From: an uncultured Clostridia bacterium
GTDB lineage: Bacteria > Bacillota > Clostridia > Christensenellales > Aristaeellaceae
Length of the DNA: 52,526 bases
NCBI GenBank assembly: GCA_937934775.1
Contig: CALGYL010000180.1
Location: 1 to 52,526, forward strand
Direction of reading: 5' to 3'
Of this stretch, positions 2,186-37,146 are shown in pieces. The position numbers and the translations under genes were made by a program. The notes under the pieces are model-generated. The model saw only the letters and a list, made by a program, of their open reading frames with translations, had not been told where the DNA came from and ran no database searches. Within the stretch, counting starts at the first letter, position 1; every line of letters begins with the position of its first letter.

Positions 2186-3586
2186 TTAATCACCAAATGC
2201 GAGCGTCTTCACCACCACGGGGAGCACGCGCCCCTCCGCGAGCGGTTCGCCGAGATCCACCGTATCCCCATGGGTCAGCGTGATCCCGTCCACGCAGATC
2301 AGGGAGGCGTCCGTCCCCCAGCGGCGCATCAGCGCCTGCCCCAGCGCCTTGGCCATATCCTGCGACATAATCAGGATGCGCGGGGTGAAATCCCCCATGC
2401 CGCGCACGATTTCCCCGGCAATGGCCTCGATCTGCCCGTATGTAGGGCTGCGCAGGCCTTCGAATCCGATGGCGAACGGCGGCTCATACAGGGAATTCTG
2501 CTTCCGGATGCGATCGCCCAGGCCGGCGACATCCTCCGGGGTCTCAAGCCGCACCTTGGCGACCGGCAAGCCCTTGAGGGGAAAGCGCACGTTGGACAGA
2601 GAGATGGTGCTCCCGGTCACGGCCACGCTGTATGCTCCGGCGCCGATCACCGTGGCGTGCAGGGTTTCCAGCGCGCGCGCCACGCGCCCCCGCGAAAAAA
2701 AACGCGAAGCGGCCAGGCACTCGCCAAGCATCCGCCCGATATCGAAAAACAGCAAGTCCTCCGCAATCGTCCGGTACACGCAATCGGCCACGCCGCCGGA
2801 AAAGGTGAAAAAATCCGGAACAACGTGCTCCGGCAGGCCATGGCCCAGGACCAGCGCATGGTACAGCGGCGTTCTCGGCCGCAGGTTCACGGCCTCCTCC
2901 AGCACCTCGGCCATCCGGCGGGCGATGCGGCTGACCAACTCCTGCGGGACGAACGCGCCCGGCGCGAGCGGGACGCCCACATCCCGGGCGACCAGTATAA
3001 GGGAGGCGGTGAAAGAATGCACCGCTCCTGCCTCCGTAAAACGCAAAAGCCGTCCGCCTATGTTCAGGCAGCCGGTTTCCAGCGGTTCTCCCCGGTCAAA
3101 CAGGCACATGTTGGTCGTTCCGCCGCCGATGTCCAGGTTGAGTACGGTTTTCCCCCGCTCCCGGGACAGGGCCGCGGCGCCCGCACCCTTGCCCGCGAGC
3201 ACCCCTTCCAGCTCCGGTCCGGCGGTTGCCACCACGAAATCCCCGGCCAGCCCAGCCAGCGCCTGGGCCACTTCCCGCGCGTTCTTCTTGCGCGCGGTCT
3301 CGCCAGTGATGATCACGGCACCGCACCCGATATCGGCAGGCCGGATTCCGGCGCGTTCATAATCTTCCTCAATCAGGCGGGCGACCGCCGCGCCGTCGAT
3401 GGTATCGGGCGTCAAAAGCGGCGTAAGCCGAATCGGCGCGCGGTAGAGCACGCGCTTGTCTGTCAGTTCCACCCGGGGTACCGCGAACGAGGGGGACAGG
3501 TTCCGCAGCGTCATGCTGCTGAAAACGCACTGCAGCGTGGAGGTGCCGATGTCAATCCCCACGCTGGTCAAACGCTCCTGCCGCAC
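2186..3586 (-). CDS. eutA: ethanolamine ammonia-lyase reactivating factor
   Basis: 466-aa ORF with an N-terminal GIDIGTST and a later LDIGGGTTN, the actin/HSP70-like ATPase motifs typical of EutA. GTG start with GGTGAGGG upstream. Directly upstream of eutB. Confidence 0.9.
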   Translation of the reverse strand: MRQERLTSVGIDIGTSTLQCVFSSMTLRNLSPSFAVPRVELTDKRVLYRAPIRLTPLLTPDTIDGAAVARLIEEDYERAGIRPADIGCGAVIITGETARKKNAREVAQALAGLAGDFVVATAGPELEGVLAGKGAGAAALSRERGKTVLNLDIGGGTTNMCLFDRGEPLETGCLNIGGRLLRFTEAGAVHSFTASLILVARDVGVPLAPGAFVPQELVSRIARRMAEVLEEAVNLRPRTPLYHALVLGHGLPEHVVPDFFTFSGGVADCVYRTIAEDLLFFDIGRMLGECLAASRFFSRGRVARALETLHATVIGAGAYSVAVTGSTISLSNVRFPLKGLPVAKVRLETPEDVAGLGDRIRKQNSLYEPPFAIGFEGLRSPTYGQIEAIAGEIVRGMGDFTPRILIMSQDMAKALGQALMRRWGTDASLICVDGITLTHGDTVDLGEPLAEGRVLPVVVKTLAFGD

Positions 3587-3625
3587 CAGCCCTCACCACA
3601 TTTCCCATTTTTGTTATTGTACACC

Positions 3626-3655
3626 CTTTTTATTTCGGCTGTCAATCGACCGTGC
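3626..3655 (-). promoter_or_regulatory. candidate sigma-A promoter for eutABC
   Basis: On the minus strand: TTGACA, 18 nt, TACAAT, about 40 nt upstream of the eutA start. Confidence 0.35.
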
Positions 3656-3698
3656 TCCCAATTTGAAATATGCGGTTAACCATTTTTTCGCACACTCC

Positions 3699-3727
3699 TT
3701 GACAAGCACATCATCCGCGGATAATAT
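3699..3727 (+). promoter_or_regulatory. candidate sigma-A promoter for the ABC importer operon
   Basis: TTGACA (3699-3704), 17 nt, TAATAT (3722-3727). The RBS TAAGGAGGGG follows at 3769-3778 and the ATG at 3788. Confidence 0.4.
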
Positions 3728-3787: not shown

Positions 3788-4882
3788 ATGAAGAGACTGG
3801 TAAGCGTCGTCCTGTGCATCATCCTTCTCATGTCCGCAGCCGTTGTCGCATCCGCCGAGGATCTGGCTGCCGCCAACGCCGACAAGGCCACCAAGGCCGC
3901 CACCATGTCATACGATGATCTGCTGGCCGCCGCCAAGGAAGAGGGTCAGGTCTTCAGCGTCGGTATGCCTCCCGAATGGGCCAACTGGAAAGACCTGTGG
4001 GCCAATTTGGAATCTCTGGGCATCAAGACCACCGACACCGACATGTCCTCCGCCGAGGAGCTTGCGCGCTTCGCCCTGCAGGACAAGGCGGATGCGGACA
4101 TCGGCGATATCGGCATCGCCATGACCAGCGTGGCCATGGATCAGGACCTGCTGCTGCCCTTCAAGACCTCGAAATGGGATTCCATCCCTGACTGGGCCAA
4201 GGATGCGGACGGCAAGTGGATCGAAGCCTACACCTGCACCACCGCCTTCATCACCGATCTTGAGAACGTGGACAAAGCCCCCACGTCTTGGAAAGAACTG
4301 CTGGAGGGCAACTACAAGGTCTGCATCGGCGACGTGGAGAAGGCCTCCCAGGCCTACAACGGCGTGCTTTCCTGCGCGCTGGCCCTCGGCGGCGACGAAA
4401 CCAACCTCCAGCCCGCGCTGGACGCGTTCGCCAAGCTGGCCAAGGACGGCCGTCTGAACACCTCCAACCCCTACGTGGCCAACCTGGAGAACGGCGAAAT
4501 CGAAGTTGCCATCCTGTGGGACTTCAACGCCCTGGGCTACCGCGACCAGATCCAGAAGGATCGCTTCGCCGTGACCATTCCCTCCGACGGCGCCGTGACC
4601 TCCGGCTACGCCAGCGTCATCAACAAGTACGCCAAGAACCCCTACGCCGCGATGCTCGCCCGTGAGATCATGCTCAGCGACGCCGGCCAGAACTTCCTGG
4701 CGCTGGGTTATGTGCACCCCATCCGCACGGACGCCGTGCTCACCGATGATGCCAAGGCCAAACTGCTGGACAACGCCCAGTACGCCAACGCCTATCAGAT
4801 CAAGGACCAGAATGCCTGGAAGGCCACGCTGGAAGAACTGCCCACCGTCTGGCAGGAGCAGGTCAGCGTAAACATGAACTAA
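3788..4882 (+). CDS. ABC transporter substrate-binding protein (family-1 SBP, PotD/PotF-like)
   Basis: 364-aa ORF with an N-terminal signal peptide (MKRLVSVVLCIILLMSAAVVASA). It is the first gene of an SBP-permease-permease-ATPase set and has a strong RBS. Confidence 0.85.
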   Translation: MKRLVSVVLCIILLMSAAVVASAEDLAAANADKATKAATMSYDDLLAAAKEEGQVFSVGMPPEWANWKDLWANLESLGIKTTDTDMSSAEELARFALQDKADADIGDIGIAMTSVAMDQDLLLPFKTSKWDSIPDWAKDADGKWIEAYTCTTAFITDLENVDKAPTSWKELLEGNYKVCIGDVEKASQAYNGVLSCALALGGDETNLQPALDAFAKLAKDGRLNTSNPYVANLENGEIEVAILWDFNALGYRDQIQKDRFAVTIPSDGAVTSGYASVINKYAKNPYAAMLAREIMLSDAGQNFLALGYVHPIRTDAVLTDDAKAKLLDNAQYANAYQIKDQNAWKATLEELPTVWQEQVSVNMN

Positions 4883-12414: not shown

Positions 12415-14718
12415 TCAGTCCTCCTCCAGCGCGCGGTTCATCCGCTCCAGCAGCTCGGACAGCATTTTCTGGGTCAGGCGGCCGCCCGACAGCATGTCCA
12501 GGTGCTGGGAAAAGCCCCAGAACGCCTTGGAGAGCTCCGCCTCCAGCCGCAGAGTCACCTGGTCGCGGGTCAGAAGGCCATGCGCCACGAGAAAATCAAA
12601 GTACGCCCCGGACGAGCGGCGGTCCCGGAAAATGTCCGTATAGTGGCTGTCCGCCGTCAGTTTTTGGACGGGTTCGGGCGTGGGGCGCGGCCGCACCACC
12701 GCCTCCAGCGGCAGGCACCGGGAGGAGCCGCCCGCTTCGAGCGCATAGTCCCCGCCAAAAACGCGCCAGTCGGTCAGCCGGTCGTCCCAGCAGGCAAAGT
12801 CCCGCTCCTCCAGGGCCATTGTCACGATGCGCCGCTCACCCGGCTCCAGGAACACCCTTTCGAAGGCCTTCAGTTCCCGCTCAGGCCGGAACAGCGGGCC
12901 CTTGGGCGGCCGGACGTACAACTGCACAACCTCGCCGCCTGCCCGGTCACCCACGTTGGTCAGCGTGACGCTCACGGTATAGCCGCCGTCCCGCGCCTCC
13001 GCCCGGAGGGAATCGTAACGGAAGCGCGTATAGGACAGGCCATGGCCGAAGGGAAAGAGCGGTTCGATGCGCCGGGCGTCGTACCAGCGGTAGCCGACAA
13101 AGACGCCCTCCCGGTAAACGCCGACATCCTGCTCATGCGGAAAATCCAGGTAAGCCGGACAATCCGAAAGGCGTTTGGGGATTGTGACCGCCAGCTTGCC
13201 GCCGGGATTGGCATCGCCCACAAGGAGATCCGCCATCGCCTGCCCCGCGCCCTCGCCCGCATACCACATGTCCAGTATGGCGTTCGCCCCGTCCGCCCAG
13301 GGCATCTCCACCGCGTCCCCGTTCATCACCACGACCACCGTGTTGGGCTGCACCGCGCACACCGCTTCGATCAGCCGCCGATGGCCGCTCTCCAGCGCCA
13401 TGTCCGGCCGGTCATACTCGTCGCTCTCGACGGGCAGGCGGCTGGCCACCATGAGAACCGCCGTCTCCGCGCGCTCCGCCAGGCGTACGGCCTCGCCAAG
13501 CAGCGCGTCGGTGGTGGAATAATCCGCCCGGTAGCCAGGCGCGTACGCAATGTCCGCCAGCGGCAGCGCGGCCTTGAGCGCCTCGATCGGGCTGTCAACC
13601 TGCCTGGCGTTCACCACCGCGCAGCCTGTGCCTTGGAACACGGGCTTCACCGCCGCCTCGCCCAAGACCGCCAGCTTCAGCTTCCGGTACTTTTCCAGCG
13701 GCAGCGCGCCATCGTTTTTCAGCAGCACGCCGCACGCCGCGGCGGCCTTTCGCGCCAGCAGGTGGTGCGCCTCCCAGTCCACCCGGGGCGCCTCGCCGCT
13801 TTGCGCGTACGCAAACACGGCGCGCAGAATCCGCTCGCAGCGGACATCCAGCTGCGCCTCCGTGAGTCGTCCATCCTCAAGCGCCGCTCGCACCTGCTCC
13901 AGGTACTGGCCGCTCCTGGGCATCTGCAGGTCCAGCCCGGCGGCCGCGGCCGCGGCGGAGTCCTTCACGCCGCCCCAGTCGGAGAGCACCATGCCCTGAA
14001 AGCCCCACTCGTCCCGGAGCACGTTTGTCAGCAGCCACTTGTTCTCGCAGCACGGCCACCCGTTGACGGCGGGATAGCTGCCCATGACCGCCGCGGGCTT
14101 CGCCTTTTTGATCGCGCGCTCAAAGCCCCTGAGATAGATTTCCCGGAGAGCGCGCGCCTCCACCCGCAAATCCAGCGCGGTGCGCCGGGTGTCGGAGTTG
14201 TTGCAGACGAAATGCTTGACCGTGGCGCCCACACCCTCGCCTTGGACGCCCTCCACCATGCCGGCGGCCATATCCCCGGCGAGAACGGGGTCTTCGGAAT
14301 AGTATTCAAAGTTCCGGGCCGTCAGCGGGTGGCGGCGGATGTTCATGCCCGGTCCCAGCAGAAGTCCAATGCCCAGCGCCTTGCACTCCCGCGCCACGGC
14401 AGCCCCCACCGCCCGCGCCAGCGCCGGGTCCCAACTTGAGGCCAGCGCGGCTCCGCTGGGAAAGCAGGTGGCGGGGTAGGTGTTGGCCAGCGCCTCTTCG
14501 GAATCAAAGCCCGATCCGGCGAAGGCATCGTAGAGGCTGCCGCCTTCGGCCGCTTGATCGCTCCCCCGTTGGAAGCGCACGCCGTTGGTGCCGTCGCTCA
14601 TCGTCAGGCTGGGGATGCCGAGCGCCGGGTTATCCTGCGTCTGCCAACTGTTCTTTCCGGTGCAAAGCCGGATCTTCTGTTCGACCGTCATCTTCCGGAT
14701 GATCCCTGCAATGTCCAT
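12415..14718 (-). CDS. bglX: glycoside hydrolase family 3 beta-glucosidase
   Basis: 767-aa ORF with N-terminal EQKIRLCTGKNSWQT…LTMSDGTNGVR and a SDWGG-type motif (VLSDWGGV), both typical of GH3. Confidence 0.9.
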   Translation of the reverse strand: MDIAGIIRKMTVEQKIRLCTGKNSWQTQDNPALGIPSLTMSDGTNGVRFQRGSDQAAEGGSLYDAFAGSGFDSEEALANTYPATCFPSGAALASSWDPALARAVGAAVARECKALGIGLLLGPGMNIRRHPLTARNFEYYSEDPVLAGDMAAGMVEGVQGEGVGATVKHFVCNNSDTRRTALDLRVEARALREIYLRGFERAIKKAKPAAVMGSYPAVNGWPCCENKWLLTNVLRDEWGFQGMVLSDWGGVKDSAAAAAAGLDLQMPRSGQYLEQVRAALEDGRLTEAQLDVRCERILRAVFAYAQSGEAPRVDWEAHHLLARKAAAACGVLLKNDGALPLEKYRKLKLAVLGEAAVKPVFQGTGCAVVNARQVDSPIEALKAALPLADIAYAPGYRADYSTTDALLGEAVRLAERAETAVLMVASRLPVESDEYDRPDMALESGHRRLIEAVCAVQPNTVVVVMNGDAVEMPWADGANAILDMWYAGEGAGQAMADLLVGDANPGGKLAVTIPKRLSDCPAYLDFPHEQDVGVYREGVFVGYRWYDARRIEPLFPFGHGLSYTRFRYDSLRAEARDGGYTVSVTLTNVGDRAGGEVVQLYVRPPKGPLFRPERELKAFERVFLEPGERRIVTMALEERDFACWDDRLTDWRVFGGDYALEAGGSSRCLPLEAVVRPRPTPEPVQKLTADSHYTDIFRDRRSSGAYFDFLVAHGLLTRDQVTLRLEAELSKAFWGFSQHLDMLSGGRLTQKMLSELLERMNRALEED

Positions 14719-24240: not shown

Positions 24241-24393
24241 AATACCGCACAAATGAGGTGGTGTGATGGGGCGCGGATTTTTTGTCAAATGCAAGAGCAA
24301 ATGTTGAAGGTTTACTGGCGGTAAATCAAGATGTTTGCAAGCGGCAGATGGTGGAAAATCAGCCGTCAGCGCGCCGCCGAATTGTGCGGTATT
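24241..24393. repeat. nested palindromic element bounded by a 12-bp perfect inverted repeat
   Basis: AATACCGCACAA (24241-24252) and TTGTGCGGTATT (24382-24393). The interior GGATTTTTTGTCAAATGCAAGAGC loosely resembles the MITE core. It interrupts a repeat unit that is uninterrupted at 19380-19530. Confidence 0.5.
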
Positions 24394-24537
24394 GCCTTAG
24401 CATTCGGTGTGTCCCCAGAAACCCCGCAGAATTTCAGGCGCGTGCAGAACTACCCCCTCGCATCAAAATGCCAAATGGGGTTTTCAATACCCAGGGGACG
24501 GCGTAAGCCGCCCCCTGGGCGAATGGGCGGCGCGCTG

Positions 24538-25155
24538 CTAGATGGTGTATTCGATGGCGCTCGCGTCCCTTCGGGTTTCGGGGTTGAAGATCAGCACGCA
24601 TTCTCGCTTCTCCACCGGCCCCAGGTTGTAATGGCCCGTGTCCTCGCTGTTGAAGACATCCCAGTGGATTTTTCGGTTTGCGCGGTCCGGCTGATCCGGG
24701 ACGTTGACGATTCCGGCATTCTTGAAATCGTGGGGCCAGAAATAAGGATCGAAAGCCTCGATGGTCTCGCCTTTTGCGCCTGTCAAAAGGATGTAATGCC
24801 CGCAGTCCAGCATCACCCGCAAAACCGCCGCGCCGCCCTGCTGCAGCGCGGCGACAATCCGGCTGTTCTGCCCCATGAAGACCTCCTCCGGCGCGAGCAC
24901 TTCGCAGCGGACGGGCCATTTTTTCATCCGCCCATACTGGTTGAGCCAGTTGGCCAAAAACGTCATCGCGATGGCGCTGGTGCCTTCCTTGCACGCCTCG
25001 CCGTCGCAGTTATAGCAGTCCATAGAGTACAGGTTGATGAATTTAATGATCTCCGGATGAATGTCCTTCCGGTCATACAGGAAGCTCACGGCGTTTCTCA
25101 GCGCGGTCGGCCCGCAGTCGAACTCCGTCGCCTGATAGCTCAGCGGATTGCGCAT
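24538..25155 (-). CDS. C39-like (papain-fold) cysteine peptidase domain protein
   Basis: 205-aa ORF. The N-terminal QATEFDCGPTAL resembles the Q…CG catalytic-Cys motif of peptidase C39-like domains, and a later CGHYILL is a candidate catalytic His. No signal peptide and no ABC-exporter fusion. Confidence 0.6.
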   Translation of the reverse strand: MRNPLSYQATEFDCGPTALRNAVSFLYDRKDIHPEIIKFINLYSMDCYNCDGEACKEGTSAIAMTFLANWLNQYGRMKKWPVRCEVLAPEEVFMGQNSRIVAALQQGGAAVLRVMLDCGHYILLTGAKGETIEAFDPYFWPHDFKNAGIVNVPDQPDRANRKIHWDVFNSEDTGHYNLGPVEKRECVLIFNPETRRDASAIEYTI

Positions 25156-25268
25156 GACTTAACACTTCTTTTCCCATTGGTATTATGGTAATTATCCGGC
25201 ATTATACGGGATCGCTCCTCGCTCGTCAAGACCGTTCCGCATACGGAATTATTAAATTCCTTCCGCAG

Positions 25269-25297: not shown

Positions 25298-25343
25298 TAT
25301 ATCATAGTATTCAGATATGAAAAAAGATATTGGAGCGATGCAC

Positions 25344-26498
25344 ATGAGCGAATGGACTTTGGAATCCAAACTCATCCACGCGGGGCTGGACGGCGATCCG
25401 GCGACCGGTGCGGTCAACGTGCCGATCTACCAGACCTCCACATACCGTCAGACGGAGTTGGGCGGACACCCGGCCTGGGAGTACTCCCGTACCGGCAACC
25501 CTACCCGCGCGGCGCTGGAAAAGCTGATTTCAGACCTCGAAGGCGGCGACCGGGGCTTCGCATTCGCCGGCATGGCGGCCATCGGCGCGGTGCTCATGCT
25601 TCTGAACGCGGGCGACCGCGTACTGGTGCCGGGGAACGTCTACGGCGGCACATACCGGATTTTGGACAAAGTGTTCAGCCGTTTCGGGCTGACCTATTCT
25701 CTGGTGGACGCGTCCGACCCTGCGAAACTGGAGAAGGAAATCCCCGGCGATGCGAAGATGCTGTTGGTGGAGAGCCCCGCGAACCCGCTGATGACGGTGG
25801 CGGACCTCCGCGCGCTGGCCGGGGTTTCCAAGCGCAAGGGGCTTCTCATGGCGGTAGACAATACATTCCTGACGCCTTACTACCAGCGACCCATCGAGCT
25901 TGGCGCGGACATCGTGCTCCACAGCGCCACCAAGTATCTGGGCGGGCACTCGGATCTCATCGCGGGTCTCGCGGTGGTCAAAGACCCGGCGCTCGCGGAA
26001 AAACTGGCCTTCATCCAGAACGCCACCGGCGGCATCCTGCAGCCGTTTGATTCGTTCCTTCTGATCCGCGGCATGAAAACGCTGGGCGTGCGCATGGAGC
26101 GGCACACGGAAAACGCGCTGTACACCGCGGAAATGCTTTCCAGGCACCCGGCGATAAAAAAGGTGTACCACCCGGGCCTTCCGACGGACCCCGGGTATGA
26201 AATCCAGAAGCGGCAGGCGTCCGGCACGGGCGGCGTCTTCTCCTTCGAACTGAAGGAGGGGTACGACGTGGGGAAGGTTCTCGCGTCGGTCAGGCTGATC
26301 GCGCTGGCGGAGAGCCTGGGCGGCGTGGAATCCCTTGTGTGCCACCCGGCGACGATGACCCACGCGTCCATCCCGGAGGAAATCCGGCGGCATCTCGGCA
26401 TCACCGACAGGCTGATTCGGCTCTCCGCGGGCATCGAGCATAAAGAGGACATCGCGCGGGACCTTCTGGCCGCGCTGGAAGCGGGAAAGGAGCATTGA
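25344..26498 (+). CDS. Cys/Met-metabolism PLP-dependent enzyme (cystathionine beta-lyase / gamma-synthase family)
   Basis: Family signatures …VNVPIYQTSTY… and …SATKYLGGHSD… (PLP lysine). The track start is 25317; ATG 25344 has better spacing from GGAG. Confidence 0.85.
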   Translation: MSEWTLESKLIHAGLDGDPATGAVNVPIYQTSTYRQTELGGHPAWEYSRTGNPTRAALEKLISDLEGGDRGFAFAGMAAIGAVLMLLNAGDRVLVPGNVYGGTYRILDKVFSRFGLTYSLVDASDPAKLEKEIPGDAKMLLVESPANPLMTVADLRALAGVSKRKGLLMAVDNTFLTPYYQRPIELGADIVLHSATKYLGGHSDLIAGLAVVKDPALAEKLAFIQNATGGILQPFDSFLLIRGMKTLGVRMERHTENALYTAEMLSRHPAIKKVYHPGLPTDPGYEIQKRQASGTGGVFSFELKEGYDVGKVLASVRLIALAESLGGVESLVCHPATMTHASIPEEIRRHLGITDRLIRLSAGIEHKEDIARDLLAALEAGKEH

Positions 26499-26500
26499 GC

Positions 26501-27442
26501 ATGCGGTATTATGACGGCGTCAAGGCACTGATCGGCAACACCCCTCTGGTGAAGCTAAACCACGTCGGCGCGCCGGAGGGCGCGAACCTGTTCGCGAAGC
26601 TGGAACTGTGGAACCCCGGCGGCAGCGTCAAGGACCGGATCGGCCTGAAGATGCTCGAAGCCGCGGAAAACAGCGGGCAGCTGAAACCCGGCGGCGCGAT
26701 CATCGAAGCCACCGCCGGGAATACCGGCCTGGGCATCGCGATCGCGGCGCTCAACCGGGGATACCGGGTTGTCTTCATTGTACCCACCAAGTTCTCCGTC
26801 GAAAAGCAGACGCTGCTCCGCGCGCTGGGCGCGGAAGTCGTAAACACCCCGCGGGAGGGCGGCATGCTGGGCGCGGCGGAGGAGGCGGAGCGGCTGAGGC
26901 GGCTGATTCCCGGCGCGGTTTCCATGAAGCAGTTTGAAAACCCAGCAAACCCGCTCGCCCACTACGAGGGCACCGGCCCGGAGATTTGGGATGCGCTGGA
27001 TGGACAGGTAGATTACCTCGTGGCGGGCGCAGGCAGCGGCGGCACGTTCACCGGCGCGGTGCGCTATCTCAAAGAGCGAAATCCCGGCGTTCAGGGCGTG
27101 CTCGCCGACCCGGACGGCTCCACGATGGGCGGCGGCAAAACGCATTGCTACGAGATGGAAGGCATTGGCAACGACTTCATCCCTGTTACGATGGACATGA
27201 CGCTGGTGGATCGGGTGATCAAGGTGACCGACGAGCAGGCGTTCTCCGGCGCGCGGCGGCTCGCGTCGCGGGAGGGCATCTTTGCGGGTTCGTCTTCGGG
27301 CGCGGCGCTGTCGGCCGCGCTGGAACTGGCCCGGTCCGGCGCAAAGGGCAACATCGCGCTGATCCTCCCCGACCGCGGCGACCGTTACTTCTCCAAGGGA
27401 TTGTATTTGGCGCCGGACACGGCTGGACGGGAAGAATTGTAA
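26501..27442 (+). CDS. cysK: cysteine synthase / O-acetylserine sulfhydrylase family PLP enzyme
   Basis: …IGNTPLVKLN…NPGGSVKDRI… and …GAGSGGTFTG… are typical of the CysK/CBS fold-type II family. RBS GGGAAAGGAG. The metC-like stop overlaps the upstream TTG. Confidence 0.85.
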   Translation: MRYYDGVKALIGNTPLVKLNHVGAPEGANLFAKLELWNPGGSVKDRIGLKMLEAAENSGQLKPGGAIIEATAGNTGLGIAIAALNRGYRVVFIVPTKFSVEKQTLLRALGAEVVNTPREGGMLGAAEEAERLRRLIPGAVSMKQFENPANPLAHYEGTGPEIWDALDGQVDYLVAGAGSGGTFTGAVRYLKERNPGVQGVLADPDGSTMGGGKTHCYEMEGIGNDFIPVTMDMTLVDRVIKVTDEQAFSGARRLASREGIFAGSSSGAALSAALELARSGAKGNIALILPDRGDRYFSKGLYLAPDTAGREEL

Positions 27443-27458
27443 ATTTCCCGAACGCCGC

Positions 27459-27488
27459 TTGACATGAGGCTTGACCCGATGCTATACT
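27459..27488 (+). promoter_or_regulatory. candidate sigma-A promoter of the nitrogenase-like operon
   Basis: TTGACA (27459-27464), 18 nt, TATACT (27483-27488), 17 nt after the cysK stop. Confidence 0.45.
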
Positions 27489-27551
27489 CTTCTCAACGAA
27501 AATCCATTATAACATATAGGAATTATCAAGATTGATTTGGGGGCGATAACC

Positions 27552-27644
27552 ATGACCACGAGGAAGATGGCCCGCATGTGCCCGATGTGCGTCATGTGCA
27601 TGACGCGTTCGTTGCGCATCGCTCGGCCATGCCTGTCAACTTAG
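27552..27644 (+). CDS. candidate regulatory leader peptide, Met/Cys-rich (30 codons)
   Basis: GGGGG RBS 8 nt upstream of the ATG. It encodes MTTRKMARMCPMCVMCMTRSLRIARPCLST: 6 Met and 4 Cys codons, with 4 Met and 3 Cys codons packed into codons 9-17. An intrinsic terminator follows, ahead of the structural genes. Confidence 0.5.
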   Translation: MTTRKMARMCPMCVMCMTRSLRIARPCLST

Positions 27645-27680
27645 GCTTATCCTGAAGCCTTCGACAAGAGCAAACCACGG

Positions 27681-27705
27681 GCGGAGCGCTGCGCTCCGCT
27701 TTTTT
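27681..27705 (+). terminator. intrinsic terminator (attenuator) in the operon leader
   Basis: GCGGAGCG-CTG-CGCTCCGC followed directly by TTTTTT. It lies between the leader ORF and the nifH-like start at 27810. Confidence 0.7.
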
Positions 27706-27809
27706 GCACACTTTTGACCCGAAATCCACCCGGCAAAGCATCCGTTCGCTTTATACCACTGCAGCAGTAAAGCGTCGGTCCAAAATCCACACGATGGGGG
27801 TAATGACTG

Positions 27810-28685
27810 TTGGCCAGGAAACTCAGGCAGATCGCGATCTACGGAAAAGGCGGAATCGGAAAATCCACCACCACCTCCAACCTCTCGGCGGCGCTCTCGG
27901 AAATGGGCTACAGGGTAATGCAGTTCGGCTGCGACCCGAAGGCCGACTCTACCAACACGCTCCGGGGCGGCAGCTACATCCCGACGATCCTTGACCTTCT
28001 TCGGGAGAACAGCACGGTGGACGCGCACGATGCCATCTTCAAAGGCTTTGGCGGCATCTGGTGCGTGGAGGCGGGCGGCCCGGCGCCGGGCGTGGGCTGC
28101 GCGGGGCGCGGCATCACCACGGCGGTGACCCTTCTCAAACAGCAGCGCATTTTTGAGGAGCTGGAACTGGACTACGTGATCTACGACGTATTGGGCGACG
28201 TGGTGTGCGGCGGCTTCGCGGTACCCATCCGCGAGGGCATCGCGGAGCACGTATTCACCGTCACCTCCTCCGATTTCATGGCGGTCTATGCGGCCAACAA
28301 TCTGTTCAAGGGCATCCAGAAGTACTCCAATTCAGGCGGCGCGCTGCTGGGCGGGGTGATCGCCAATTCCATCAACCAGCCCTATCAAAAAGAGATTGTT
28401 GACGACTTCGTTCGGCGCACGAACACCCAGGTGATGCAGTACGTGCCCAGGTCTCTCACCGTCACCCAGTCAGAGCTGAAGGGACGGACCACCATCGAGG
28501 CCGCGCCGGACAGCCCGCAGGCCGAAATCTACCGGGAGCTGGCCCGAAGAGTAGACGCCCATGTGCAGTCGGGCGTGCCCTCTCCCCTCTCCACGCAGGA
28601 ACTGCGCGAGTGGGCGGACCGCTGGGCGGATGTACTCATCGGCATGGAGTCGGGCGAGGTACGGTCCCCCGCCGCCGGAATCTAG
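27810..28685 (+). CDS. nitrogenase iron protein-like ATPase (NifH/BchL/MarH family)
   Basis: P-loop [10 protein letters not shown]. Both [4Fe-4S] ligand contexts are present (GVGCAGRG and DVVCGGFA). TTG start with GGGGG 9 nt upstream. Confidence 0.9.
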
Positions 28686-32999: not shown

Positions 33000-33040
33000 A
33001 CTCAAATCAATCGAATAATGAATTGAGAAGGAGAATTTCC

Positions 33041-33874
33041 ATGAAGAAAATTCTTGCCATCGTGCTCGTTTTGTCTCTTTTTGTCAGCGTGACCGCTCTT
33101 TCGGAGGCGACGGCAACGCCCGCGCCCGAAGCGACGCCCCTTGCGACCTTCAACCCCCGCGTGACGCTGAAAGTGCTGGCCGACGTGGTCCCCCACTCCG
33201 AGCTTCTGGAGTTCGTCAAGCCCAAGCTGGCCGAACAGAGCATTGACCTGGAAATCACCATCGCTCAGAACGACCACGGCAACGACGACACCGCCTCCGG
33301 CGAGTTCGACGTCAACTTCTTCCAGCATGTACCCTACCTGAATTCTGTCGTGGCGGAGAAGGGTCTCGATTTGGCCCCGGCCGGCGCGATCCATGTGGAG
33401 CCGATCGGCTTCTACTCCCAGAAGTACAAGACGAAAGAAGAGATTCCGGACGGCGCGGTCGTCGGCGTGCCGAACGACACCACCAACGAGTACCGCGCGC
33501 TGAAAATCCTGGAGCAAAACGGCTTCATCAAGCTGCGGAGCGACCTCGCGACCTATGAAGCGACCATTCAGGACATCACCGAATACGTGAAGCCCATCAA
33601 GATTGAGGAGATCGACGCCGCGCAGCTGGTCCGCCTGCTGCCGGACCTTGACGGCGCGATCATCAACACCAACCGCGTGCTGGAGGCGGGCATCGACGCC
33701 AACTCCGCGCTGTTCCGCGAAGGCGCGGATTCGCCCTACGCGAACGTTCTGGTCACCACCAAGGAGCGTGTGAACGATCCGGCCATCGTGGCGCTGTACC
33801 ACGCGCTGACCACCGAAGAGGTGCGCCAGTTCATTCTTGAAAAGTACCAGGGCGCGGTCATCCCGGCGTTCTAA
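33041..33874 (+). CDS. metQ: MetQ/NlpA-family substrate-binding protein
   Basis: 277 aa from ATG 33041 (RBS GAAGGAGA). Signal peptide MKKILAIVLVLSLFVSVTALSEA. NlpA-family character (…FFQHVPYLN…, …VGVPNDTTNEYRAL…). Confidence 0.85.
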   Translation: MKKILAIVLVLSLFVSVTALSEATATPAPEATPLATFNPRVTLKVLADVVPHSELLEFVKPKLAEQSIDLEITIAQNDHGNDDTASGEFDVNFFQHVPYLNSVVAEKGLDLAPAGAIHVEPIGFYSQKYKTKEEIPDGAVVGVPNDTTNEYRALKILEQNGFIKLRSDLATYEATIQDITEYVKPIKIEEIDAAQLVRLLPDLDGAIINTNRVLEAGIDANSALFREGADSPYANVLVTTKERVNDPAIVALYHALTTEEVRQFILEKYQGAVIPAF

Positions 33875-33884
33875 GAAAAACAAA

Positions 33885-33929
33885 GGCGGGGGGGGCCGGA
33901 GGAGCGGGTTGCTCCCCTGGCCCCCCGCC
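33885..33929 (+). other. very GC-rich nested hairpin inside the operon (between metQ and the nifX-like gene)
   Basis: GGCGGGGGGGGCC…GGCCCCCCGCC outer arms enclose GGAGGAGC-GGGTT-GCTCCCCT. No U-tract. Confidence 0.5.
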
Positions 33930-33958
33930 GCAATGATCGATTGAATGGAGGTGGCTGT

Positions 33959-34300
33959 ATGCCCCACCGCATCGCGCTGGCCAGCATATCCGGAAAGTTC
34001 GTCGATACCCACTTCGGCCACGCCGAGCGCTTCGCGATTGTGGACCTGTTCTCCGATCGGTATGAGCTGGTGGAACTGCGCAAGGTACGGCGCGCCTGCG
34101 GCCCGAGCGGCCACGACGAACGCGCGTTTGACGCGATCCTGGACACCCTTACCGACTGTGAAGCGCTCCTGGTCGAGCGCATCGGCTACGGCGCGGCCCA
34201 GTACGTGGCCGCCAAGGGCATCCGCGTGTTCGAAGCGCCCTACCCCATCGACGACGTACTGAACAAGCTGATGGCGGATCGGATCCTAGATAAACCCTGA
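33959..34300 (+). CDS. NifX/NifB-C-terminal-like (dinitrogenase iron-molybdenum cofactor biosynthesis domain) protein
   Basis: 113 aa from ATG 33959 (RBS GGAGGTG): MPHRIALASISGKFVDTHFGHAERFAIVDL…. The HFGHA…F.I.D pattern is typical of the NifX/NafY/NifB-C domain. Confidence 0.7.
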   Translation: MPHRIALASISGKFVDTHFGHAERFAIVDLFSDRYELVELRKVRRACGPSGHDERAFDAILDTLTDCEALLVERIGYGAAQYVAAKGIRVFEAPYPIDDVLNKLMADRILDKP

Positions 34301-35339: not shown

Positions 35340-35549
35340 ATGAGCGATTGGACAGAGACCGGATTCTCCACCCGAAGCGTACCCGCCGGAAAGGGCGTGG
35401 ACGAGGGCGGCAGCGCGACCCGCAGGCCCATCATCACGGCCAACGGTTACCGTCTGCCCTACGTCCCGTCCGCGCTGAACTGGAGCGACGCCGACGCGCT
35501 GCTCTATACCCGCAATGCCGGCGCGAACCAACTGTACTTGTGCTGCTGA
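35340..35549 (+). CDS. hypothetical small protein (69 aa) ending in Cys-Cys
   Basis: Strong RBS AAAGGAGA 7 nt before the ATG. G/C-rich third positions like neighbouring genes. I recognise no family. MSDWTETGFSTRSV…LPYVPSALNWSDADALLYTRNAGANQLYLCC. Confidence 0.5.
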   Translation: MSDWTETGFSTRSVPAGKGVDEGGSATRRPIITANGYRLPYVPSALNWSDADALLYTRNAGANQLYLCC

Positions 35550-35694
35550 ATGCCGGCCATGCGCTGGAAGAAGAGGTTGGCTTCCACCCTGGAGACAGAG
35601 AGATACCCGATCGTCAACAATGAGAAGGTCGGCCTGCTTGATCCACCTTATACGGGCTTGGGAGCGAAATGATACCTTCCTTTTCTCCCGACCG

Positions 35695-37146
35695 CTATTC
35701 TCTATGCCTGTTTTGCATCCGTACTCTATCCCTGGGCTTCAGGTACCCGAGCCTTTCCGTTTCCAAGTCGGACCGGTTAATCAGCGTCGTGTTGAAATCA
35801 TGCCAGTGGAACGGAGCCCAGGGCGACATGTAGGGGGTCCCAAAGCTGTTGAGCGAAACCAACTCGATGGCGATGGCTGTCAAAAAAACGGTAAAGCCGA
35901 AAAAACCCAGCGCCCCGGTGAACATGATCAGCGCGAACTTCAAGATTCGGAACGGGTTGATCAGCGTATAGTCCGGAATCGCGAAGGAGGCCAGGAGCGA
36001 TACGGCCGCGATGGTCAGAAGCACCGGGCTGAAAAACCCCGCCGCGATGGCGGACTGGCCGATCACGATGGCGCCCACGATGCCGATGGCCGGACCGATC
36101 TGTTTGGGCACCCGGACGAGCGCCTCCCGGAGCAATTCCACGATGAATTCCAGGATCAGCGCACCCACCATCGCGCTGAAGGGCACGTTGGCGCGCAACT
36201 GCGCCAGCGAAATGGCATAATCGCTGGGCAGGACTTCGGTGTGGAAAGAGGTGATGGCGACGAAGATGCTGGACGCGGTCAGCGCGGTCGCGATGGACAT
36301 ATACCGGAGCAGCCGGTTGAACATCCCGAAGTACTTGTTGTCGTACCGGTCGTCGCAAGAATAAAAGAATTCGCTGAAAACCTTGGGCGCGTACAGCGCG
36401 ATGCCGCTGCCGTCTGCCAGCACCATAACCTTGCCTTCCAGGAGTGTCGAGTACGCCATGTCCGATCGCTCGATCAGGCCCATCTGAGGAAAGAGTATCT
36501 TGTTGTCATTGAGCAGGAAGGCCTGCAGTTCGCCAGATTCGCCGATGCCATCCACGCGAATATCCCCGATGCGTTTGAGCACCTCGTTCACGGCAGTGTC
36601 GTTTGCGATGTCCTGAATATAGAGCACCGCCACGCGGGTCCGGGTCCTCACGCCCACCTCCATGTACCGGATGCGCAGGTTTGGGTCCTTGACCCGGTAC
36701 CGGACCAGCGACAGGTTTGCGTCCAGGTTCTCGGTAAAGCAGTCTTGCCCGCCGCGGACGGTGTAGGTCAACTGCGGCGTAGGCACCGACCGTTTTTCCA
36801 CCTTCTTCTGATTGATGACGAGGTAGCTCTCGTCGGTTGAAAACATAAGTACCGCCATGCCGGATAGGATGAACTCCTGAATCCTGGCCCAATCCGTCTC
36901 CACCTTGGCCGAGTCGGCGTAGAGAATGCCGTCCAGCGCCTCCTGCGCGGTCAGCCGCGCCCGGCCGGAGGCGCACGCCAGGACCAATGGCTTGACAACG
37001 TTTTCCGAGAGCGCCAGCCTGTCGGTGAGCTGCTGGATGTACATCAGCTCCGCCCTGCCGCCCCGGTAGGGAACGGAGCGCCTAGTGATGTCCAGATCGC
37101 CCGTCTGGATGGAATCGATCCATCGTTCAAATTCTCCGTGCCTCAT
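35695..37146 (-). CDS. gerA: spore germination protein, GerA/GerKA family (A subunit)
   Basis: The ORF is open from 37179; ATG 37146 follows GAAGGAGAGGA. GerAA-family character, with a C-terminal membrane domain. Confidence 0.85.
   Translation of the reverse strand: MRHGEFERWIDSIQTGDLDITRRSVPYRGGRAELMYIQQLTDRLALSENVVKPLVLACASGRARLTAQEALDGILYADSAKVETDWARIQEFILSGMAVLMFSTDESYLVINQKKVEKRSVPTPQLTYTVRGGQDCFTENLDANLSLVRYRVKDPNLRIRYMEVGVRTRTRVAVLYIQDIANDTAVNEVLKRIGDIRVDGIGESGELQAFLLNDNKILFPQMGLIERSDMAYSTLLEGKVMVLADGSGIALYAPKVFSEFFYSCDDRYDNKYFGMFNRLLRYMSIATALTASSIFVAITSFHTEVLPSDYAISLAQLRANVPFSAMVGALILEFIVELLREALVRVPKQIGPAIGIVGAIVIGQSAIAAGFFSPVLLTIAAVSLLASFAIPDYTLINPFRILKFALIMFTGALGFFGFTVFLTAIAIELVSLNSFGTPYMSPWAPFHWHDFNTTLINRSDLETERLGYLKPRDRVRMQNRHRE

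Follow-up and report, generated by a model that had tools for sequence, protein, structure and literature searches.

A putative methionine- and cysteine-codon leader attenuator upstream of a methylthio-alkane reductase-type operon in an uncultured Clostridia bacterium

In a 52,526-nucleotide (nt) contig from an uncultured Clostridia bacterium of the Aristaeellaceae (CALGYL010000180.1, assembly GCA_937934775.1; the whole stretch analysed is referred to below as the window), a leader region at positions 27459-27809 separates an mccB-mccA gene pair from a nifH-like gene that opens a nitrogenase-like operon. The leader contains a short open reading frame (ORF) dense in methionine (Met) and cysteine (Cys) codons, followed by an intrinsic terminator, and we consider it reasonably likely to be a ribosome-mediated attenuator sensing these two amino acids. 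The features of the locus, some of them predicted by folding, are as follows.

25317-26498: cystathionine gamma-lyase-like gene, the mccB of the mccB-mccA pair, upstream of the leader
26495-27442, plus strand: CysK/cystathionine-beta-synthase-like gene (mccA-like; NCBIfam TIGR01137, TIGR01136, TIGR01139)
27459-27488, plus strand: sigma-70-type promoter, TTGACA-18 nt-TG-TATACT, with 11 of 12 consensus matches and a TG extension
27500-27526: conserved dyad box AAATCCATTATAACATATAGGAATTAT (dyad ATCC...GGAAT), between the -10 element and the Shine-Dalgarno (SD) sequence
27539-27543, plus strand: SD sequence GGGGG, with an 8-nt spacer to the leader ATG
27552-27644, plus strand: leader ORF of 30 codons (ATG at 27552) plus a TAG stop (27642-27644), encoding MTTRKMARMCPMCVMCMTRSLRIARPCLST
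27576-27602, plus strand: codons 9-17 of the leader ORF, the proposed regulatory cluster (M C P M C V M C M), seven of nine being ATG or TGC
27576-27619, plus strand: predicted protector (1:2) hairpin, the RNAfold minimum-free-energy fold when the leader is ribosome-free or a ribosome sits at the stop
27614-27628, plus strand: segment 2, GCGCATCGCTCGGCC, which contains CGCTCGGC; 5′ strand of the predicted antiterminator
27680-27705, plus strand: intrinsic terminator with a 9-bp G+C-rich stem (27680-27688:27692-27700), CTG loop and T6; kept in relatives
27810-28685, plus strand: nifH-like (marH-like) gene by NCBIfam, TTG start at 27810; first gene of the operon

The order of the leader elements, running from promoter through 5′ untranslated region (UTR), SD, ORF and terminator to the gene, is complete and correct. 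A preliminary description of this DNA had placed the promoter, ribosome-binding site, 30-codon ORF, cluster of seven Met or Cys codons in nine and terminator just where they are found; the dyad box is an addition to its features. Transcription is predicted to start near 27495, which leaves about 57 nt of 5′ UTR ahead of the leader ATG. The hexanucleotide ATGTGC occurs three times within the ORF at 9-nt intervals, and the terminator, composed of GCGGAGCG (27681-27688), CTG, CGCTCCGC (27692-27699) and TTTTTT (27700-27705), has a folding energy of -17.9 kcal/mol (RNAfold). A density of at least seven Met or Cys per nine-residue window occurs once across the six frames of the 52.5-kb window and in none of 200 dinucleotide-preserving shuffles of it; because it is absent from the shuffles, the codon density of the leader ORF is not a chance feature.

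For comparison, 80 genome and 80 metagenome loci were fetched around homologues, and more contigs were reached via the mccA-like protein; those of the closest NifD-like proteins (P0002 and P0003) end short of any leader. Leader peptides homologous to that of the window are encoded in the following loci.

L001: MTTRMMGRFGMNEMCTMCTMCMTRAGARLLGSP
L161: MTTKMMGRLGMTKMCTMCKMCMTRAGARSLGSP
L162: MTTRTMGRLGMEMCTMCMMNRAGARSMSS
L163: MTTRTMGRLGLEMCTMCMMTRAGARRMPS

Each of these relatives has the ORF and its Met/Cys cluster, whose conservation the preliminary description had proposed to examine, and likewise the terminator, with frame and stop column kept. The five-sequence alignment of the window with L001, L161, L162 and L163 (A2) shows conservation of the promoter, which is kept in all four relatives, the box, GGGGGCGAT, the start, the ATG-TGC repeats, the stop column and GGGCGGAGCGC; GGGGGCGAT, in the SD region, is invariant across the five clade members. 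By comparison with these fixed points, the codons that separate the ATG-TGC pairs are variable at first, second and third positions. The ORF has gaps of 3 or 6 nt only, as against 2, 1, 3, 4 and 1 nt beyond it, and the variable ORF sites are spread evenly over the three codon positions (11/11/12). Internal gaps in multiples of three, retained ATG and TGC codons and evenly spread variable sites would be expected of a translated leader in which frame and certain codons count, irrespective of peptide sequence. A full HMMER scan of 1.84 billion proteins returned P0241 (MTRTMAGMCLMCVMCMTHSLRIARPRLST) as the sole relative of the window peptide; it keeps MC.MCVMCMT and shares the tail SLRIARP.LST. 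Queried with ten aligned leader peptides, a word-indexed protein search yielded five candidates, none of which scored, and such leader ORFs are essentially never annotated by gene callers. Within L001:1-100, ahead of the promoter of the L001 leader, GCGCTGAAAAC(G/A)CGCGCCGGGGC is present twice as an imperfect direct repeat; its counterpart position in the window is the end of mccA.

Beyond this clade, the loci were scanned for modules containing short ORFs with at least six Met or Cys per ten residues. At least seven more distant lineages have Met/Cys-rich short ORFs, unrelated in sequence, together with a terminator. The modules, identified by the gene that comes next, are these.

L041, marH-like gene next: leader peptide MPRKMVITAGCRCSCMAALCRPALSC
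L044, marH-like gene next: leader peptide MNCCANCNWMMGMCRMMTRCIP
L178-180, marH-like gene next: leader peptide MVGFYMPGKTMHMCRCTMCFRRHAP
L044, metY-like (O-acetylhomoserine-sulfhydrylase-like) gene next, directly after mccA: MTASRSANMCPMMMCRMMMCMCGGVPNPIRAVL
L041, metY-like gene next, directly after mccA: MKPRNTCCSAMACTQMCCSMCVCFRASIRADL
L083, metY-like gene next, directly after mccA: ORF 312-178, minus strand
L084, metNIQ-marH next, after mccA: MMCCCMYKMGMSKLNNMH
L037, NifB/marB-like gene next: ORF 3566-3703
L171, luxS next: 4241-4089, minus strand; Met-dominated MKKTMMYRMQMYMCMMGMYTLCVHTPRCGLVG from the SD-proximal ATG, with a terminator

The genes after these modules all belong to the metabolism of Met, Cys or the S-adenosylmethionine (SAM) cycle, and the terminators, present in all instances, fold at -15 to -31 kcal/mol. 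An SD lies 6-9 nt ahead of the start codon in 12 of 12 leaders, Met and Cys together account for 19-48% of the residues across the twelve, and their ATG and TGY triplets fall 93:29:8 in frames 0, 1 and 2 counted from the SD-proximal start. This recurrence without sequence homology between lineages argues most strongly that what functions in the leader is its codon content. The position of the module is likewise shared, since it follows the mccA-like gene in the window, L041, L044, L083 and L084. Downstream of mccA in the homologues P0155, P0194 and P0166 (about 74% identity) no leader was found; what comes after mccBA in these loci is an Rrf2 gene, or luxS on the opposite strand, and one of them gave the L171 luxS leader. 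In L171, a Clostridia contig in which mccBA adjoins the opposite-strand luxS, the leader is annotated at source as a 50-aa hypothetical gene.

Downstream of the window leader, the operon comprises marH-marD-marK-metN-metI (nifH-, nifD- and nifK-like genes, metN and metI), and a NifB-like radical-SAM gene lies farther downstream of metI. The NifD-like protein P0001 (493 aa) has full-length matches of 477 bits to PDB 9fmg_A and 9d9u_A, and 9FMG is cited in the methylthio-alkane reductase (MAR) structure paper (bioRxiv 10.1101/2024.10.19.619033). Judged by this homology, the protein is a close homologue of MarD of MAR, and because of the match to the MarD structures the operon is assigned to the MAR (group IV-C nitrogen-fixation-like) systems. 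These set free methanethiol for use in methionine synthesis, and their enzyme holds complex Fe-S clusters (PMC13474568). Homologues at 72-92% identity are common among Bacillota genomes and metagenome-assembled genomes (MAGs). The sulfur amino acid role that the preliminary description had attributed to the operon is supported by the MarD homology together with the SAM-I riboswitch (95.7 bits) that L062, a Peptostreptococcaceae MAG, has ahead of its orthologous nifH-like gene.

Several observations concern the gene neighbourhood as such. Long ORFs next to the operon, at 33002-34114 (minus strand) and 24331-25191 (plus strand), have no family match in NCBIfam or Pfam, and the ORF at 35515-36840 (plus strand) has none in Pfam, the one library used for it; the first of them, of 370 aa, sits between metI and the NifB-like gene. 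In L175 (7863-12791), mccB and mccA lead directly into NifD- and NifK-like genes, the nifH-like gene and leader being absent between them, and a metNIQ-like transporter lies upstream in divergent orientation: the same gene set in a different wiring. In L161 (5519-8957), the nifH-like gene is called at 401 aa and the nifD-like gene is split in several pieces, the leader being intact, which suggests frameshifts or assembly errors in the contig.

A known riboswitch in the leader, like lack of conservation of the ORF, was among the contrary findings that the preliminary description had foreseen; none of those open to computation materialised. Rfam, applied to the whole window at gathering score, gave no match, SAM riboswitches and T-box included, and permissive filters over 27380-27900 returned only a spurious 18.9-bit match to the Pseudomonas sRNA P31, on the terminator. 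Among 12 related loci, SAM-I was found in L062 only. The identical search does detect SAM-I in L062, which puts the operon of that lineage under S-box control, and by these models the window leader is neither an S-box nor a T-box. Readings of the leader as a T-box or a variant SAM riboswitch were also rejected, as were the leader ORF as part of an antisense gene (the minus-strand ORFs are short or antisense to nifH in G+C-rich DNA) and the terminator as belonging to mccBA alone.

Other lineages carry other elements at related loci. L062 has three SAM-I riboswitches (397-502, 4668-4772 and 13149-13254, plus strand) in one 14-kb locus, one of them preceding a small ORF and the nifH-like (marH-like) gene, and a tandem glycine riboswitch at 12760-12948 (minus strand). 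Clostridium, Ethanoligenens and related genomes have a conserved non-coding element, CUGA-[CYRG]-AAAA-[CYRG]-AGG, at L023:5914-5932, L042:5897-5915, L049:5645-5663, L057:1166-1184, L064:4526-4544, L067:5900-5918, L068:5895-5913, L069:926-944, L101:638-656 and L123:2878-2896, and also in L124 and L125. It stands about 70-110 nt upstream of the next mar gene in most loci (not L049 or L101), and in most loci read it is joined directly to an intrinsic terminator (not evident in L057). Its 4-bp stem covaries (CUGG/CCAG, CUAG/CUAG, CCAG/CUGG, CUGG/CCGG) and it has no Rfam family match, so that it is a candidate for a new riboswitch or protein-binding attenuator for sulfur salvage.

The dyad box lies just past the leader promoter. 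The window has a single copy of its core, ACAYATRGGAWT, where zero are expected, and the core pattern matches 9 of the 160 loci, so that the box is significantly over-represented. It occupies the equivalent leader position at L001:192-203, L041:1592-1603 (minus strand), L044:2404-2415 (minus strand) and L083:340-351 (minus strand). It is also found in Clostridium arbusti (L049:5614-5625) and in L123-125 (L123:2852-2863), there before a different downstream element, and at L028:8869-8880 it directly precedes a gene, the leader ORF being absent. In the form AACATATAGGAAT(T/G)A, this AT-rich box recurs in distant Bacillota, just past the -10 of promoters for sulfur metabolism, whichever regulatory element follows. 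Rrf2-family genes follow mccBA in related Clostridia (L165, L168). An AT-rich dyad that ends in ATAGGAATTA just past the -10, the box may resemble the CymR operators of the Bacillus and Staphylococcus cysteine regulon; the B. subtilis CymR operator is reported to read TAAWNCN2ANTWNAN3ATMGGAATTW (Even et al. 2006). The box at 27500-27526 is probably the operator of a putative sulfur repressor of the CymR/Rrf2 type, which suggests two-level control.

The alternative folds of the leader were modelled in RNAfold with a 29-nt ribosome mask at chosen codon positions. With no ribosome, or with one at the stop, the codon cluster of the window leader is predicted to fold on itself and with GCGCAT in helices 27576-27581:27614-27619, 27583-27585:27609-27611 and 27588-27595:27600-27607, the terminator probability being 0.92 in the former case and 0.97 in the latter. 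When the ribosomal A site is set on codon 6, 15 or 17, segment 27614-27628 instead pairs with 27680-27694, giving a modelled antiterminator of CGCTC:GAGCG and GCC:GGC, extended by GCGCA:TGCGC; with the ribosome on several of the cluster codons, the terminator probability drops to 0.02-0.5. The modelled helices of the window leader would constitute a trp-like 1:2 / 2:3 / 3:4 set. The antiterminator pairing envisaged in the preliminary description is formed in the window model, and the relatives reproduce the switch only in part: at equilibrium it recurs in L162 alone, and partly in L161 and L041b.

In the metY-type leaders, only CCAUUCGGGC and the terminator are conserved past the codon cluster, and the two blocks are mutually complementary, as in L041b (UUCGGGCG:CGCCUGAA). 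CCAUUCGGGC is read in different frames in L041b and L083. A column-consistent covariation of this metY-type antiterminator was rejected, as the L083 pairing is offset by one nucleotide. In modelled transcripts of all leaders that end before the terminator 3′ arm, the 5′ arm for the most part has other pairing partners (0.55-0.89), to an extent that barely differs between ribosome positions; such pairing would be compatible with an antiterminator that acts kinetically.

The comparative evidence argues for the leader-ORF interpretation; the identity of the antiterminator and the direction of the response we infer. As proposed, and as the sequence comparisons make reasonably likely, the leader is a Met/Cys-sensing ribosome-mediated attenuator, probably on top of a CymR-like operator. 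At the first level, a repressor of the CymR/Rrf2 kind would bind the dyad box just past the promoter. At the second, transcripts from about 27495 would encode the 30-codon peptide, whose codons 9-17 are nearly all Met or Cys. Where Met-tRNA and Cys-tRNA are plentiful, or the leader is untranslated, the codon region would pair with 27614-27619, the terminator at 27680-27705 would form and transcription would halt before marH. Where charged tRNA-Met or tRNA-Cys is scarce, the ribosome would stall on the cluster and melt the protector hairpin, and the freed segment 27614-27628 would pair with 27680-27694, blocking the terminator and letting polymerase enter the operon, whose product would provide methanethiol for methionine synthesis.

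A number of results weigh against this mechanism. The preliminary description pointed to CGCTCGGC (27620-27627, inside the 3′ part of the ORF) as a seven-of-eight match to the terminator 3′ arm; the match is there, at a level not above chance, the best duplex of the ORF region with the terminator 5′ arm in the window being -20.6 kcal/mol against -18.5 +/- 2.3 for shuffles (p = 0.18). In none of ten leaders does this complementarity exceed dinucleotide shuffles (p = 0.17-0.49; Fisher p = 0.20). At equilibrium the terminator forms at any ribosome position in L001, L163, L041a, L044a, L044b and L179, and a second, queued ribosome does not rescue the switch in these six. In the sister leaders, segment 2 is sequestered by the SD/start region (GGGCG..UCGGCGUG with CGCGCCGG..CGCCC), not by the Met/Cys codons. 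As to the alternative pairings expected in relatives, the terminator is kept, but compensatory changes are absent from the RNAalifold comparison of the five close relatives, which are few and very similar sequences. The L083 ORF runs into the terminator loop, and in L171, L044b and L041b only 13-17 nt separate stop codon and terminator stem; a ribosome ending so near the stem may hinder the terminator, which would give the regulation the opposite sign. In the window and its clade, the gap from stop to stem is 29-35 nt. Translation of the leader ORF is itself something that we infer, and methionine starvation also limits initiator tRNA, which complicates sensing by Met codons. As for the operator, no Rrf2 gene lies within the 52.5-kb window, a departure from the CymR comparison, and the likeness of the box to the CymR consensus is tentative.

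Several of these results would also fit a translated ORF that controls the terminator by another logic, in which abundant Met and Cys bring the ribosome near the terminator and suppress it, or in which general translation capacity is what is reported. The short distances from stop to stem in L171, L044b and L041b, the stop inside the terminator loop of L083 and the absence of an equilibrium antiterminator from most relatives agree with it, as does the reported finding that a terminator a few base pairs past a translated gene is repressed (PMC4824070). The 29-35 nt gap of the window and its clade, however, exceeds a ribosome footprint, and it would make no physiological sense to induce genes for methanethiol release, Met synthesis and Met uptake amid abundant Met and Cys. 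Moreover, the SAM-I of the orthologous operon belongs to a riboswitch family that turns genes off at high SAM, and the extreme and specific enrichment in Met and Cys codons favours amino-acid specificity, so that this logic seems unlikely. Even less is to be said for the AUG, UGC and UGU triplets being sites for a sulfur-responsive TRAP-like RNA-binding protein, or part of a new small-molecule riboswitch, with the ORF a by-product. The triplets do recur at short spacings, as in the three ATGTGC at 9 nt, RNA-level blocks such as CCAUUCGGGC are conserved in different frames between L041b and L083, and a non-coding hairpin element controls the same operon in other lineages. Yet in all cases a strong SD precedes an in-frame start codon by 6-9 nt and a stop in the same frame comes ahead of or at the terminator, 93 of 130 triplets lie in frame 0 (most frame-1 cases being TGT inside ATGTGC), all ORF indels are multiples of three, the spacing and order of the triplets differ wholly between lineages, and there is no Rfam family match; we regard such binding sites as distinctly unlikely.

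The peptide could, in principle, be what is selected, as a Met/Cys-rich micropeptide with a function of its own, such as assisting the nitrogenase-like enzyme by metal or cluster binding, the hairpin merely ending its own transcript or that of mccBA. Cys-rich small proteins exist, the MAR enzyme has complex Fe-S clusters (PMC13474568), and the window peptide and P0241 have their SLRIARP.LST tail in common. Against this, the peptides (17-45 aa) are unrelated between lineages save in composition, third codon positions are no more variable than the others, similar ORFs precede metY, luxS and metNIQ, which have no link to cluster assembly, and gene callers detected almost none of them; a functional micropeptide is accordingly very unlikely. 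Still more improbable is an incidental ORF, with the repressor box alone regulating and the hairpin serving only as the terminator of the mccB-mccA operon. The conservation of the box, its presence immediately ahead of genes that have no leader ORF (L028) and the fact that the hairpin is the first terminator past mccA would be accounted for in this way; but past mccA and ahead of the terminator there is a strong promoter, and its transcripts would be pointless without read-through, the Met/Cys density is never reached in shuffles, and the module recurs independently, with frame conservation, in at least eight lineages.

Leader-peptide attenuation is a textbook mechanism, rare in Firmicutes. 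The trp, his, leu, thr, ilv and pheA attenuators of Proteobacteria have in common with this leader an SD-led ORF, a run of end-product codons and an intrinsic terminator and, as far as the folding model goes, 1:2 / 2:3 / 3:4 helices chosen by ribosome position. Unlike them, the leader mixes Met with Cys codons and belongs to a Bacillota host, in a phylum where riboswitches and T-boxes are the rule; in its sister leaders it is the SD/start region, not the regulatory codons, that supplies the protector strand, and its antiterminator lacks statistical or covariation support. The S-box (SAM-I) of L062 shares its regulatory position and metabolic pool and also acts via a terminator, whereas the window leader matches neither RF00162 nor any other SAM family and would sense charged tRNA via translation.

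Leader ORFs with Cys codons have been described in actinobacterial cys and cbs leaders (PMC1262725), in mycobacterial polycysteine small ORFs (sORFs), which are reported to be leaderless (bioRxiv 10.1101/834739), and in uORFC-8-2, which precedes cysS in Rhodobacterales and ends in an intrinsic terminator (PMC8632094). As here, these ORFs are short, lie upstream of sulfur or Cys genes and are read as sensors of Cys-tRNA supply; they differ in being Cys-only, with two to several Cys codons, whereas here Met codons outnumber Cys codons. The mycobacterial cys leaders have no conserved terminator hairpin (PMC1262725), unlike the window leader with its SD, 57-nt 5′ UTR and strong terminator, and the targets here are MAR, metY, metNIQ and luxS in Bacillota. 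A leaderless sORF is one at whose start codon the transcript begins; the window leader, with about 57 nt of 5′ UTR and an SD, is not of this kind. In bacilli, a His leader peptide precedes hisS paralogues and hisZ; as the authors of that work pointed out, no leader peptide had been demonstrated beyond Proteobacteria and Actinobacteria (PMC2965389). That system, like the present one, combines a leader peptide with a terminator in Firmicutes, and it replaces the T-box of its relatives, a precedent for a sensor swap; it differs in amino acid and genes and bears no sequence relation. Antibiotic-induced ribosome-mediated attenuation works in B. subtilis (PMC4191407). The preliminary description had called a leader tuned to Met and Cys unusual; a literature search found no described leader peptide built on methionine codons or on a Met and Cys mix. 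A 2026 review of nitrogen-fixation-like enzymes names MAR regulatory proteins for R. rubrum only, SalR and MarS (section 8.5), and makes no mention of riboswitches or leaders (PMC13474568). The mechanism class of the putative attenuator is thus classical; its Met and Cys specificity, its phylum and its target operons are new.

A wider proposition, to which we give somewhat less than an even chance, is that uncultured Bacillota hold a modular, fast-evolving class of attenuators that read Met-tRNA and Cys-tRNA, placed after mccA, gating MAR, metY, metNIQ or luxS atop a CymR-type operator, and replacing the SAM-I riboswitch or hairpin element of other Firmicutes. If true, this would be the first attenuator class built on Met codons, and it would raise the question of how Met can be sensed by elongation although initiation also needs it. 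Ribosome-mediated sensing, if real here, can replace an S-box riboswitch at one operon. The leader would then also provide the first regulatory handle on MAR operons outside Rhodospirillum, and the widespread nitrogenase-like operons of anaerobic Bacillota would be tied, by an independent line, to the supply of sulfur amino acids.

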